The translations under genes were made by a program, and so were the position numbers. Shown in pieces: positions 1 to 62,818 of a DNA stretch of 64,000 nt. Under the pieces are notes generated by a model that worked only from the letters and a program-made list of their open reading frames with translations, was not told the DNA's origin and made no database searches. The first letter of the stretch is position 1, and the number at the start of each line of letters is the position of its first letter. This DNA comes from Candidatus Saccharimonadota bacterium (GTDB lineage Bacteria; Patescibacteriota; Saccharimonadia; Saccharimonadales; JAXHMH01). Location: NCBI GenBank assembly GCA_034521515.1, contig JAXHMH010000002.1, positions 576,444-640,443 of the forward strand, in the 5' to 3' direction.

Positions 1-386
1 AGCTCGACGTTGGACTTTAACAGTTAGCTCAGCAGGTCGCTTGTCAGCGTTATAGACACATCTGAATAGATGCAAAAGATTCAATTAGCGACGCTAAGGA
101 AACTGTAGCAAACTTGTTTGCTCGCAGTAACTTTGCACTCGCACCAGCTACAGTTTAATTACTGGTAGCCGTACCTAACAAGACACCTTGGTATTGTCTA
201 GGTACGTCATATCACCAAGGTTGCTCTTAGCGATTGATTCTTAAGCTAAGCTAAGACATAAGAATCAAGCTTTACGGTCTTTTGGCTGTTTTTACTCCGT
301 AAAGTTATACCAAATAGCCTAAACCTGTAGGACAGACTAACTAGTTGAACTAGCGGACGCGGGGGCAGTACCCGCCAGCTCCACCA
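1..386 (+). ncRNA. ssrA: tmRNA (SsrA), 5' end cut by window edge
   Basis: The window opens with ..GCTCGACG.., as near a tmRNA 5' end. An internal tag-like frame at 108-158 reads gca aac ttg ttt gct cgc agt aac ttt gca ctc gca cca gct aca gtt TAA (ANLFARSNFALAPATV*). The tRNA-like 3' end GGACGCGGG-GGCAGTA-CCCGCCAGCTCCACCA ends at 386. Confidence 0.65.
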
Positions 387-54584: not shown

Positions 54585-54744
54585 CGCGGAGCTAACCTCC
54601 TCGCTCTCCGCCGACTTACGGATCACTAATGGAGGTTAAGACTATTACTCTAGGCCCTTCGATTTACTTTGTTCACTCAGGGTCATTCGACTCAGCATGA
54701 TGGTTTACCTTGAGCGAAGCAGGATTGTATCCTGCTGAGTCGAA

Positions 54745-54809
54745 TGGTGCGCGAGAGAGGACTTGCCCTGTCATCCGACAGGGCACCATATCGCATGATA
54801 TGGTGAACC
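54745..54809 (-). repeat. Double-hairpin plus tRNA-Leu 3'-tail module, copy 1
   Basis: Its reverse complement reads ggttcaccatatcatgcgatatggtgccctgtcggatgacagggcaagtcctctctcgcgcacca. Confidence 0.9.
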
Positions 54810-54858
54810 TTTTAATAATGCCCCGATTACCGCCAACAATAAAACGGTATTACCATTC

Positions 54859-54944
54859 TGGTGCGCGAGAGGACTTGAACCTCCACGAGCGTAATGCTCA
54901 CTAGCTCCTGAAGCTAGCGCGTCTACCGATTCCGCCACTCGCGC
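54859..54944 (-). tRNA. tRNA-Leu(CAG)-like, with a T-stem/acceptor junction 2 nt shorter than its GAG twin
   Basis: The reverse complement reads gcgcgag-tg-gcggaatcggtagacgc-g-ctagc-ttCAGga-gctag-(long variable arm)-ggaggttcaagtcctctcgcgcacca. Confidence 0.6.
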
Positions 54945-55150
54945 AGATTACTATTACTACCCGCGCTAGCGCGTCTACGATAGTTTACTCGAAGCCGCCA
55001 CTCGCGCAGAGCCAATCGTATCTTACGGGCTTAAATATAAAAACTCAATAATAAGATGACGATAGTTGATTTGGACTGAAAAGTATAGGTGTATTATGCT
55101 ATGATAGCTACCAGTCACGGTAACGCTTAATCAGGACAATCGCATATTTT

Positions 55151-56788: not shown

Positions 56789-56899
56789 CCCAACGTTTAG
56801 AGCTTGTGTTTTAGGTATGTAACAGATACAATACGGCGGTTATGCGCGAGTGGCGGCTTCGAGTGGACAATCGTAGACGCGCCTGCGTGACAAACATGT

Positions 56900-56986
56900 G
56901 CGCGAGTGGCGGAATCGGTAGACGCGCTGGCTTGAGGGGCCAGTGGCCGCAAGGCTGTGGAGGTTCAAGTCCTCTCTCGCGCACCA
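56900..56986 (+). tRNA. tRNA-Leu(GAG), CCA encoded
   Basis: The cloverleaf was drawn by hand: gcgcgag/ctcgcgc acceptor, anticodon loop ttGAGgg, long variable arm, T-arm ggagg-ttcaagt-cctct. Confidence 0.85.
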
Positions 56987-57035
56987 GAATGGTAATACCG
57001 TTTTATTGTTGGCGGTAATCGGAGCATTATTAAAA

Positions 57036-57100
57036 GGTTCACCATATCATCCGATATGGTGCCCTGTCGGATGACAGGGCAAGTCCTCTCTCGCGCACCA
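57036..57100 (+). repeat. Double-hairpin plus tRNA-Leu 3'-tail module, copy 2
   Basis: It reads ggttcaccatatcatccgatatggtgccctgtcggatgacagggcaagtcctctctcgcgcacca. Confidence 0.9.
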
Positions 57101-57527
57101 TTCGACTCAGCAGGATACAATCCTGCTTCGCTCAAGGTAAACCATCATGCTGAGTCGAATGACCCTGAGTGAACAAAGTGAATCGAAGGGCCTAGATTAA
57201 TAGCCTTGATCCTTAAAAAATAATCCGCTAGTCGGCGGAGAGCGGGGAGGTTAGCTCCGCGCGCAAGCCGGAGCGCTGTCCTCTCTCGCACACCAAGGTC
57301 AGTTGTGGTATTATCTTGCAGTACAAACATAGTACATTTAATAAATTCACATTTAGCATTTACCTACAATTTGTAAATTGATCAATGATAAATGTTAAAT
57401 AATTCGGGTGATTAGCTCAGTTGCCGCAACAGAATGTTGCAAGTTAGAGAATAAGCCAGCTCTAGCCAACTGACGTACATACACGCCTGTTAAGAGAAAA
57501 GCTGTACATTAAGTAATAAAAAAATAA

Positions 57528-57604: not shown

Positions 57605-57626
57605 TACTTATTGTTTAGTCATTCCT

Positions 57627-57661
57627 GGCTCTTTAGCTCAGTTGGTAGAGCAGAGGCTTGA
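57627..57661 (+). repeat. Exact duplicate of the 5' 35 nt of tRNA-Phe (acceptor to anticodon loop)
   Basis: ggctctttagctcagttggtagagcagaggcttga is identical to 57795-57829 and diverges inside the anticodon loop. Confidence 0.9.
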
Positions 57662-57794
57662 TTAGCGTCAAGTTTCGATAAGTCGAAACTTTACCTAAAT
57701 AGCGAGCTGATATAATTTACTATCAGCGAGTGTTAGAGCTAGCGATGAAAGCCTGCTTAGTGAGGGCAGCACATTACAAACTTAATCTAGATGT

Positions 57795-58654: not shown

Positions 58655-58869
58655 TAAAACTTGCCCTAAGAGGTTTCGTCAGCTATAATTCACCGCTGTT
58701 AAGTAGTGTTTATGCGAGACTAGCCCGGCCTGTCCGTTGGACAGAACGGGCAGGTCAGCTGCCCCAGCTTGCTGGAAGAAATAATAAACGCGCAAGCGCT
58801 CTGGCAGCTGTCACGGGAGTGAGTCATTAACAATTTATCAGTAACTGACTGTAATTGTCAGAGTAATAT

Positions 58870-58945
58870 GCGAGACTAGCTCAGCTGATAGAGCGCTTCC
58901 TTGCCAAGGAAGAGGCCACGGGTTTGAGTCCCGTGTCTCGCACCA
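58870..58945 (+). tRNA. tRNA-Gly(GCC), CCA encoded, noncanonical D-loop/T-loop
   Basis: gcgagac/gtctcgc acceptor, anticodon loop ttGCCaa, D-loop agctgata (no GG), T-loop tttgagt (no C56). Confidence 0.8.
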
Positions 58946-58980: not shown

Positions 58981-59381
58981 TGGTCTAGCACAGATTCAAA
59001 CCCGTGTAAGTGAGCAAAGCGAACGAGGGTTTGTTGGAGCGCAGCGCAGAAAAGAAAGCACCGAAGGTATTTTCTTTTCAAGCAAGCGGAAAAGGGCTTC
59101 AGCCCGCTGTCCCGTGTCTCGCACCAATGAAAGAGCCGAGCCTTGTGCTCGGTTTTTTGATTGGTCTGGTGGATACAAACCCCGTCCAGTGATGCGCCCT
59201 AGGCGTAGAACGAGGGTTTGGTGAAGCGAGAGCTCACGCAGATGCTTGCATAGAGTAAGCTCGAGCGGAAGAGGCCTGCCGATATCCTCTCACTCGCACC
59301 ATTCGCAACCTTAGAGCCCAAAAGCGCTCTTTTTTATATGTTAATTTCAGGTTTTAACGGATTAAGTTATAATTGCTAATT

Positions 59382-59990: not shown

Positions 59991-60493
59991 AATGAAGTTT
60001 TAATTTCGTAGCTAACAGCGCACCAGAATGACAGATCAGCCAGCCTGCTTATGAGCGAAGCTCATCACTCCGCTGGCTGTTTCGTCCTGGCGGTGCCGAA
60101 ATTTCCAGCACTCTCTCTACGTATCACTTATACGTTTCGTCCGTGCTTCAATTTCTCCTAACCAGAAACTAAAATCTGTTCATTCTGGCTCGGGGGTGGA
60201 TACAAACCCCGTCCAGTGATGCGCCCTAGGCGCAGAACGAGGGTTTGGGCGCCAATGAGCCACGCGCAGATGCTTGCATCGAGCACGGCGAATGCGCAAG
60301 CTTCAGCTGCAGTAGGTGCAGCTCCATTGAATTACGTTTCATTTACTGTTCAAATTACTTTTATGTGAACAGTAAGACCACTAACGTAGTGTTAGCAGAA
60401 ACAAATGTAATATGCTATTTTTGATAACGGAATATTTGATATTTGCTAACAAAGAGTTAGTAATTTTATGAAATAGCGAATAGGAGTGAGGTT

Positions 60494-62009: not shown

Positions 62010-62500
62010 TATAAGTATACTCTTTCGAAATTCAACTTGAATGATATTGAATAAATAGCAACACTCAACAATTTCTTGTGTGAATCCCTGTGCTTACCTG
62101 TCTAGTAAATACTCATTATATGGAACTTCCAAAATCTCCCTCCATCTAGCCATCTCATCTTTAATAGTGTGTAAACTTTTACCTAGGTACTGCACCAATG
62201 AAAAACCCGGCCATAGCGCCGGGTTTTTCATTGGTATGTCGCCGACTCAAACCCGTGGCCTCTTCAAAGAAAACTATTGGCCACGGTCACACCGCGATAG
62301 CGCCAGCGGTCGCGGTGTTTTGAGTCCCGTGTCTCGCACCATTCGACTCATTTCATTCGCTCATGGTAAACCATGGGCGTTTTTGTTAGTCGAATGACCC
62401 TGAGCCTGTCGAAGGGCTCATATAAAACCCGTGGCCTCTTCAAAGAAAACGGAACTAGTTTTATCAAAATAGCTTGGTAAGCTATAATTCACTGGTAGCT

Positions 62501-62592: not shown

Positions 62593-62680
62593 GGGCGAGT
62601 GCTGGAATTGGTAGACAGTGCGGACTTAAAATCCGTTGAGTGAATAACTCGTGTGGGTTCAAGTCCCACCTCGCCCACCA
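62593..62680 (+). tRNA. tRNA-Leu(TAA), CCA encoded
   Basis: gggcgag/ctcgccc acceptor, anticodon loop ctTAAaa, long variable arm, T-arm gtggg-ttcaagt-cccac. Confidence 0.88.
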
Positions 62681-62695
62681 ACTTGAAATTGCATG

Positions 62696-62727
62696 ACAGC
62701 TTCCGTGAAATAGCGGAAGCTGTTTTA
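62696..62727 (+). terminator. Rho-independent terminator acagcttccg-tgaaatag-cggaagctgt-tttt
   Basis: Read directly. Confidence 0.75.
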
Positions 62728-62753: not shown

Positions 62754-62818
62754 GGTTCGCCATATCATCCGATATGGTGCCCTGTCGGATGACAGGGCAA
62801 GTCCCACCTCGCCCACCA
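62754..62818 (+). repeat. Double-hairpin plus tRNA-Leu 3'-tail module, copy 3 (tail matches tRNA-Leu(TAA))
   Basis: It reads ggttcgccatatcatccgatatggtgccctgtcggatgacagggcaagtcccacctcgcccacca. Confidence 0.9.

Follow-up and report, generated by a model that had tools for sequence, protein, structure and literature searches.

A 40-nt twin hairpin within broken tRNA T-loops of a Candidatus Saccharimonadota bacterium: probably a miniature mobile DNA element

Why should a pair of small hairpins sit in the middle of a broken tRNA T-loop, and do so more than once in a single tRNA cluster? The question is posed by a 64,000-nt stretch of contig JAXHMH010000002.1 (assembly GCA_034521515.1, Candidatus Saccharimonadota bacterium), referred to here as the window. 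Scanning it with at most one mismatch recovered the 40-nt string ACCATATC-ATCC-GATATGGT / GCCCTGTC-GGAT-GACAGGGC, henceforth the twin hairpin, three times (Table 1). All three copies in the 64 kb belong to one tRNA cluster, and a chance origin was rejected, given that no occurrence is expected in the window by chance. The answer argued for below is that the hairpin pair is probably a very small non-autonomous mobile insertion element.

An earlier annotation made from the letters alone (the sequence-only reading) had described three remnant copies, each with the hairpins between GGTTC and AAGTCC, and the scan found them at the same places. Every window copy is flanked by GGTTC on the left and AAGTCC on the right, after which come the T-stem 3' strand, the acceptor 3' strand and the ACCA of the adjoining tRNA-Leu. 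The tail follows its neighbour, as had been noticed, reading tctctcgcgcacca beside Leu-GAG and Leu-CAG and cacctcgcccacca beside Leu-TAA. Two measurements needed correction, namely the insert, which is 40 nt long and not 41, and the gap from the tRNA 3' end to the remnant, which is 49–73 nt in the window with no open reading frame (ORF) inside; the 75–115 nt given earlier is approximately the distance from T-loop to T-loop. Copies 1 and 2 had also been counted as separate. Both lie within a 98% identical inverted repeat of 234 nt, itself belonging to an inverted module of about 425 nt either side of the FAD-oxidase gene, so they represent one event and the window holds two independent sites.

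DNA folding indicates that both hairpins form as single-stranded DNA (ssDNA) on either strand, at about −15 to −17 kcal/mol (z about −4). The hairpins had thus been correctly recognised, but not their supposed uniformity: the loop of copy 1 is different (Table 1), and copy 3 has CG instead of CA as its left dinucleotide, its initial G leading to a G-T closing pair. No fourth copy or variant hairpin was found in the 64 kb, either with halves carrying 2–3 mismatches or with generic TC-NNNN-GA hairpins. At gathering score only tRNA and tmRNA (the latter at window positions 1–386) match the window in Rfam, and nothing credible appeared for 56980–57260 at E ≤ 10. The window copies are isolated, without a regular repeat-spacer pattern, and a CRISPR- or TIGR-like array was rejected for this reason; the rare tandems seen elsewhere repeat a whole tRNA-like unit. 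A DNA uptake sequence was also discarded, the copies being too few.

Table 1. Coordinates of the twin hairpins and of the tRNA-Leu features around them (window positions).
Feature	Position	Strand	Description
Copy 1, remnant	54745-54809	-	Twin hairpin 54765-54804; hairpin 1 loop ATGC, not ATCC; inverted duplicate of copy 2
Copy 2, remnant	57036-57100	+	Twin hairpin 57041-57080; tRNA-Leu 3' remnant GGTTC ... AAGTCCTCTCTCGCGCACCA
Copy 2, left CA	57040-57041		
Copy 2, hairpin 1 core	57042-57059		
Copy 2, central TG	57060-57061		
Copy 2, hairpin 2 core	57062-57079		
Copy 2, right-hand CA	57080-57081		
Copy 3, remnant	62754-62818	+	Twin hairpin 62759-62798; tRNA-Leu(TAA) 3' remnant, tail AAGTCCCACCTCGCCCACCA
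234-nt inverted repeat, left arm	54638-54871		Partner 56974-57207; 98% identity
234-nt inverted repeat, right arm	56974-57207		Partner 54638-54871
tRNA-Leu(GAG), intact	56900-56986	+	T-arm-to-CCA segment duplicated in copy 2
tRNA-Leu(CAG)	54860-54945	-	Adjoins copy 1; lowest tRNA score in the window, 43 bits
tRNA-Leu(TAA), intact	62593-62680	+	T-arm-to-CCA segment duplicated in copy 3
Terminator-like hairpin	62695-62724	+	Between tRNA-Leu(TAA) and copy 3
tRNA-Leu 5' fragment	56838-56887	+	Acceptor strand and D-arm with 12-nt D-loop insertion; upstream of tRNA-Leu(GAG)
Mirror copy of tRNA-Leu 5' fragment	54964-55013	-	

A genome scan for the exact twin-hairpin pattern, with one genome per species, located it in five other species-level genomes. 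All five split the T-loop at the same place and the tRNA differs: a Glu-type remnant (L001), a nearly complete second tRNA-Thr with hairpin 1 alone also in its D-loop (L002 and L003; hairpin 1 is present twice in L002), a Ser remnant carrying the insert in the opposite orientation (L004) and an Arg-type remnant (L005). One genome record among the others is labelled Bdellovibrionales, a label that by itself does not establish breadth beyond Saccharibacteria. De novo palindromes arising from break repair were rejected as an origin, the same sequence recurring in unrelated genomes.

Metagenomes extend the picture considerably, with at least 120 contigs matching the hairpin-1 pattern. After removal of duplicates and of chance matches in coding sequences, we counted 49 distinct twin hairpins among the matches listed and aligned 41 distinct instances. 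About 31 of the 49 are found at TTC|R (C56|R57) of T-loop remnants, sense or antisense. The intact tRNAs nearest to these T-loop elements cover 13 identities (Glu, Thr, Ser, Arg, Val, Asn, His, Ile, Leu, Lys, Gln, Gly and Ala) and are mostly no more than 100 nt from the element-bearing remnant. In palindromic TTCGAA loops, about 16 inserts are sense and about 9 antisense relative to the tRNA, and the occurrence of both orientations agrees better with DNA as the target than with a function bound to the tRNA transcript. Six sites are in D-loops, at the step TAGCT|CAG, and this subfamily measures 36 nt and is devoid of the central dinucleotide; about seven elements occupy intergenic GCTTTG-repeat tracts just 3' of stop codons, and several are nested in another copy's loop or hold a further hairpin in their own. 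Of the three readings first offered, which also included att debris and a functional structured RNA or protein-binding site, a miniature mobile insertion comes closest, while the specificity for tRNA-Leu that went with it is contradicted by the 13 tRNA identities and by the D-loop, nested and intergenic sites. Viral contigs contained no twin hairpin; they gave 14 hairpin-1 matches, mostly in coding sequence. Three loci (L048 1-270, L074 and L113) show tandem repeats of the whole tRNA-like unit with its element, with periods of 116, 282 and 239 nt, respectively.

One contig is particularly informative about what inserts. In L130 (6676-6789) the 40-nt element lies cleanly inside the T-loop of a full-length tRNA-Ala(GGC) whose acceptor stem is correct, with the G3:U70 pair, and which has a terminator of its own; no duplicate lies nearby. 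ARAGORN does not call this gene, and taking out the 40 nt gives back a perfect T-arm. The hairpin pair can therefore insert alone, without duplication of a tRNA tail. L130 may show a dispensable isoacceptor that was hit recently, or else the RNA of this gene may tolerate the insert or lose it. Generalised, the latter would make the twin hairpin an intron-like insert removed from the T-loop at the RNA level, some hairpin-bearing tRNA genes being functional. In favour of this, the tRNA-Ala(GGC) of L130 is complete, has its identity elements and a terminator and carries the 40 nt cleanly, and the flanking dinucleotide repeats would bring the exon ends side by side at the base of the stacked helix. 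However, most hosts are truncated fragments that could not work as tRNAs, L130 being the one complete host; antisense orientation is common; and inspection shows a perfect hairpin at each junction and neither the 3-nt bulges nor the 4-bp helix of an archaeal-type bulge-helix-bulge intron. Splicing of such inserts is not known in bacteria. As a general explanation this is very improbable, and only genes of the L130 type leave room for an intron acting at the RNA level.

The aligned instances share a single plan. A dinucleotide XY comes first and is followed by a 7-bp hairpin, CCATATC-ATYC-GATATGG; between this and another 7-bp hairpin, ..TGTC-GRAT-GACA.., stands the reverse complement of XY, and a further XY closes the unit. 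In 33 of the 41 the left and right dinucleotides are the same and are the reverse complement of the central one, the classes being CG/CG/CG (22), TG/CA/TG (7) and CA/TG/CA (4). Window copy 2 is CA/TG/CA and copy 3 is CG/TG/CA. Since the central dinucleotide is complementary to both flanks, it can lengthen either hairpin by two pairs, and joining the ends would turn the unit into a 40-nt dumbbell whose 16-bp stem is unbroken. Base-pair counts bear this out, with 99% of cells paired and compensatory changes at six pairs in hairpin 2 and at both central-dinucleotide pairs. The covariation score is 0.19–0.20 versus 0.09 after shuffling, none of 500 shuffles reaching the observed value, and slid controls fall to 24–51% paired. 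Hairpin 1 is invariant in the collected set because it served as the search seed. A scan by structure only found 78 twin hairpins, against 2–11 in shuffled sequence, and among them variant first stems (CCCTATC/GATAGGG, CCGTATC/GATACGG, CCCCGC/GCGGGG) keep the same loops. These loops, ATYC and GRAT, are complementary to each other and come in the same order in both orientations. The hairpin tips read TC-GRAT on one or the other strand and so resemble the T-loop core TTC-GAAT, a likeness that may explain nesting. On the left the flank is G-R-T-T followed by XY, and the same XY follows the element, which could be either a 2-nt duplication or the element's own end.

Absence of the motif from relatives and elsewhere had been named among the refuting conditions, and the outcome is divided: it is missing from the closest syntenic relatives and widespread in other genomes. 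The hairpins are not present at the syntenic tRNA-Leu/FAD-oxidase loci of the nearest available relatives (FAD oxidase 74–80% identical in amino acids), which keep both tRNA-Leu genes around the FAD oxidase and the tRNA-Cys/tRNA-Leu(TAA)/LemA arrangement; the two closest are short contigs ending at or before the tRNA. A 1.8-kb Logan contig, whose source is this organism or one nearly identical to it, stops where the element starts, inside hairpin 1, in the way that assemblies break at repeats.

These patterns bear on another explanation, that the twin hairpin is a host-selected DNA or RNA module and not a parasite. It might neutralise a redundant T-arm, which could then neither compete in tRNA folding nor be used for integration, or it might serve, 3' of tRNA genes, as a signal for processing, stability or protein binding. 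High conservation across lineages, the compensatory changes in the stems and the complementary loops with their constant order could all be expected of such a module. The element is also kept at orthologous tRNA-Asn, Thr, Glu and Arg remnants of related contigs, and in the tRNA-tail comparison no remnant has an intact TTCRA T-loop, the sole uninterrupted one seen being the variant TTTGAGT of a distal tRNA-Gly tail. Yet the closest relatives have the same tRNA-Leu genes without the element, and copy 3 sits past the point where the tRNA-Leu(TAA) transcript probably ends, since a terminator-like hairpin stands between gene and remnant. Orientation to the tRNA is variable, the contexts are unrelated, copies occur in tandem and nested, and in L130 an otherwise perfect tRNA-Ala gene has been disrupted. 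On balance we consider a host-selected module quite improbable.

The tRNA remnants themselves require an explanation. The collected loci comprise 134 distinct tRNAs. For 30 of them, or about 20%, the 3' tail is repeated no more than 400 nt downstream, and for 27 the 5' head is repeated upstream. The element is present in about half of the tail copies and a third of the heads, and the others hold variant twin hairpins or different inserts. Remnants start 2–5 nt before TTC and extend to the 3' end of the tRNA or slightly beyond it (the AAGTCC...ACCA direct repeats of the window are 20–27 nt); some look like att-type repeats and others are pure tandem duplications running 3–30 nt beyond the tRNA end. 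In four pairs the CCA is encoded by the remnant and not by the intact gene. Retro-copying of mature tRNA was rejected as the general origin of the tails, several duplications running past the tRNA end. The tails are partial duplicates of the neighbouring tRNA, that is, of the host locus, and not part of the element, and the co-varying tail may well be att-like or a local partial duplicate.

It is from these remnants that an integrase-based account draws its strength. Here the hairpins would be the recombination-site end of miniature integrative modules, in which a T-arm-shaped attP, holding the twin hairpin in its loop, recombines with the tRNA T-loop at C56|R57 and duplicates the segment from R57 to the 3' end, so that remnant plus hairpins would be attR/attP. 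The remnant boundaries resemble the identity blocks of T-loop-targeting integrases, a comparison based on the integrase sublocations that Williams reportedly defined in 2002. Hairpin-free remnants mostly start exactly at R57, with other inserts in front of them, for instance ones ending in GTGACC; the direct repeats at times extend 8–30 nt past the tRNA end; and a 3.4-kb gene-bearing segment of the window is bracketed by tRNA-Gly tail repeats. Nevertheless, only 2–73 nt separate the repeats, without genes and with no integrase nearby, L130 has the element without any duplication, and elements are found in non-tRNA tracts, nested in other copies and in both orientations. The insertion point, 3|4 of a 7-nt loop, would moreover not be a cut site of a tyrosine recombinase. 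We therefore see this as a quite unlikely account. The simpler idea that the hairpins are plain att debris finds no support, given the lack of any element or integrase between the repeats, the recurrence in unrelated genomes and tRNAs and the clean insertion into tRNA-Ala.

On the view that we favour, the twin hairpin is a mobile insertion element. Its preferred target is the TT|YR step in the middle of GGTTCRAATCC, a T-loop sequence that is nearly universal, and it also uses similar D-loop steps, the TCGRAT tips of other copies and some intergenic repeats. Insertion into an essential tRNA gene would destroy the gene, and copies would therefore persist almost only in redundant tRNA pieces: T-arm-to-CCA remnants, which would offer a harmless T-loop target, 5' heads, dead duplicate tRNAs and dispensable isoacceptors. 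Most economically, the element would be handled as folded ssDNA. More speculatively, this would happen in a hairpin-recognising reaction similar to those of IS200/IS605 or REP/RAYT, in which its central dinucleotide would pair with the dinucleotide at the cleavage or target site and excision would release a 40-nt dumbbell, its 16-bp stem being continuous. We advance this specific single-strand, guide-dinucleotide mechanism tentatively, as rather unlikely to be right in its particulars. The + strand of the window, which carries copies 2 and 3, is the leading strand and hence the lagging-strand template throughout, a placement that is compatible with a single-strand mechanism without testing it. 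In its most ambitious form, which we judge unlikely, the twin hairpin would be the smallest sequence-specific mobile DNA yet seen, a 36–40-nt ssDNA 'dumbbell' transposon that homes to the tRNA T-loop, the best conserved short sequence in biology, is guided by its central dinucleotide and, through its activity or the repair of its insertions, generates the partial tRNA duplications scattered over the tRNA loci of these reduced genomes.

Several observations weigh against mobility. A Pfam scan of 20 window ORFs, including all those lying between the tRNA fragments, detected no transposase, recombinase, integrase or RAYT, and so far no gene has been linked to the element. Conservation across lineages together with stem covariation would also fit a host-selected structure, and the invariance of hairpin 1 is a product of the seeding. 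As for the flanking repeat of 2 nt, it could reflect a duplicated target, a shared crossover core or no more than selection for longer stems. Many intact tRNAs are separated from element-bearing remnants by spacers of only 2–10 nt, which suggest that duplication and hairpins may be mechanistically linked, and most hairpin-free remnants begin exactly at R57. A model of insertion into pre-existing remnants leaves both the short spacers and the R57 starts unexplained, which hints that loop breakage and duplication may be linked. Finally, no filled/empty pair of otherwise near-identical sites was recovered, and we consequently infer mobility at the DNA level from distribution rather than from having seen it directly.

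The surroundings of the twin hairpins in the window are rich in further tRNA debris. The tRNA-Leu(CAG) gene next to copy 1 reads ...AAGTCCTCT-CGCGCACCA and lacks 2 nt (CT) at the T-stem/acceptor junction that are present in the GAG gene, in CAG's own downstream remnant and in the orthologue of a related contig (L007). Being 2 nt shorter, it has a T-stem of only about 3 pairs; the loss could be real slippage in a CTCTCTC run or an assembly error. The window also holds 5' pieces of tRNA-Leu, Val, Phe and Gly, and three tRNA-Gly tails. A tRNA-Val 5' fragment (57404-57470; tRNA positions 1–18) lies about 100 nt upstream of the intact tRNA-Val and is followed by an inverted D-arm copy (GCTCTAGCCAACTGA) with which it can pair, an arrangement kept at L007 10469-10535, where the FAD oxidase is 78% identical to that of the window. 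Upstream of the intact tRNA-Phe, its 5' half (57626-57691) reaches the anticodon loop (..GGCTTGA) and runs into a different twin hairpin, CTTGA-TTAGCG-TCAAG and then AAGTTTCGA-TAAG-TCGAAACTT, whose first stem is built from the tRNA's own bases.

For tRNA-Gly, the 3' tail GTCCCGTGTCTCGCACCA occurs at 58922-58945, 59106-59129 and 62321-62344. The first and last of these bracket about 3.4 kb that encode a DUF4145 protein and two small membrane-like ORFs, with no integrase, and that look like a decayed island; the distal tail is the one that retains the uninterrupted TTTGAGT. Within the same segment there is a 54-nt direct repeat of 98% identity (GGTGGATACAAACCCCGTCCAGTGATGCGCCCTAGGCG.AGAACGAGGGTTTGG; 59168-59221 and 60195-60248). 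At 58661-58725, a promoter-like TTGCCC-17-TATAAT within ...cagctataattcac precedes an 11-nt tRNA-Gly head and resembles the site before tRNA-Cys (62461-62488). The intact tRNA-Gly begins about 145 nt beyond this head, as if an insertion had displaced the original 5' end.

Other small inserts share these loci. A second conserved module comes directly after the ...CGCACCA of Leu and Gly remnants (57101-57195; 54650-54744, − strand; 62345-62415), with the layout TTCGACTCA...(variable hairpin with GGTAAACCAT)...TGAGTCGAATGACCCTGAG...TCGAAGGGC, its core GTCGAATGACCCTGAG being found exactly three times. In relatives, a larger structured insert of about 85–110 nt occupies the same T-loop position in duplicate tRNA-Leu and tRNA-Ser copies (L012 7556-7720, L010, L060, L119, L021). 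It ends in a hairpin GGTCGC...GTGACC directly before R57, and the L021 insert has hairpin 1 nested within it. Three unrelated contigs (L005 4353-4371, L093 and L039) have a perfect palindrome of 19 nt, CTGCCTGCCGGCAGGCAGG, in tRNA remnants, placed after the T-loop or in the D-loop region; it is probably another small palindromic element with the same landing sites. Elsewhere intact tRNAs stand between inverted repeats (L001 3215-3345, L057, L022 5000-5040, L005 4148-4255): AGCCCAGCCCTAAAT / ATTTAGGGCTGGGT around tRNA-Glu and CCCCGCACCTTTTGC / GCAAAAGGTGTGGGG around tRNA-Arg. The intact tRNA-Glu of L001 lies within an outer, broken one (5' piece GGCCCCG.., 3' tail ..CGGGGTCACCA), and the GCCCTAAA..TTTAGGGC palindrome is found in L022 too.

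Should the twin hairpin be mobile, two hairpins and six guide-like bases would suffice to spread across genomes by exploiting a sequence that every cell must retain. It would then account for broken tRNA copies and assembly breaks at the tRNA loci of Saccharibacteria and similar reduced bacteria. It would also be a compact model for structure-guided DNA insertion, with the conserved hairpins as bait for finding the enzyme. The tRNA remnants, for their part, can mislead tRNA annotation and the calling of genomic-island boundaries.

A literature search by topic and by sequence string found no description of the twin hairpin, which appears to be undescribed, and several known systems resemble it in part. 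Integrase att remnants of the T-loop class likewise have a tRNA 3' segment directly repeated downstream of the intact gene. In our loci, unlike those, the repeats enclose almost nothing, the T-loop core is split at C56|R57 and the interrupting sequence is conserved across unrelated genomes and tRNAs. Cyanobacterial small dispersed repeats, which PMC3116915 lists as 'SDR' and which Elhai et al. are said to have described in 2008 as mobile-looking sequences of about 20–30 nt that nest within one another or within hairpins, are reportedly of another lineage and sequence, with no tRNA-loop targeting described for them. REP/BIME/REPIN sequences are short non-coding hairpin repeats mobilised by RAYT (IS200/IS605-like Y1) transposases, and in both IS200/IS605 and REP/RAYT the hairpins are recognised and the cleavage sites read by pairing with element-internal bases (PMC3116915). 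As in REPs and REPINs, our elements are very short, paired hairpins that insert beside or into each other and form clusters and tandems, presumably as folded single strands mobilised in trans. A REPIN, however, is an inverted doublet of one REP forming a long hairpin, whereas the twin hairpin has two different, adjacent, self-complementary hairpins, and it further departs from REP/RAYT in its apparently low copy number, with three copies in the 64 kb, its tRNA-loop target step and its 2-nt flank complementary to the central dinucleotide. With IS200/IS605 and the gene-less PATEs it shares hairpins at both ends and the lack of terminal inverted repeats and, with IS200/IS605, perhaps insertion beside a short fixed sequence, a circular single-strand intermediate being plausible. 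In contrast to them it is only 36–40 nt long and has nothing between its hairpins, the cleavage-site logic is one that we infer, and no TnpA, TnpB or Y1 transposase is associated with it among the window ORFs.

Organelles provide the remaining parallels: the double-hairpin elements of Allomyces and other fungal mitochondria (Paquin et al. 2000, cited in PMC5910586), the repetitive hairpin-forming elements of sponges (PMC2800124) and the GC clusters of yeast mitochondria (PMC4478555). Such elements are also tiny, consist of one or two hairpins and are intergenic or sometimes within structural RNA genes, and they are considered mobile by comparative evidence, their mechanism not being known. Like the twin hairpin, the mitochondrial double-hairpin elements are short units of two adjacent hairpins, dispersed and variably present among relatives. 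The twin hairpin differs from all of these in its bacterial host and its unrelated sequence, and for none of them has a preference for the T-loop centre or an XY rule been reported. Set beside the closest known kinds, the twin hairpin is new in three respects: it homes to T-loop centres, it follows the XY / rc(XY) / XY rule, with rc(XY) the reverse complement of XY, and it occurs in reduced uncultured bacteria.

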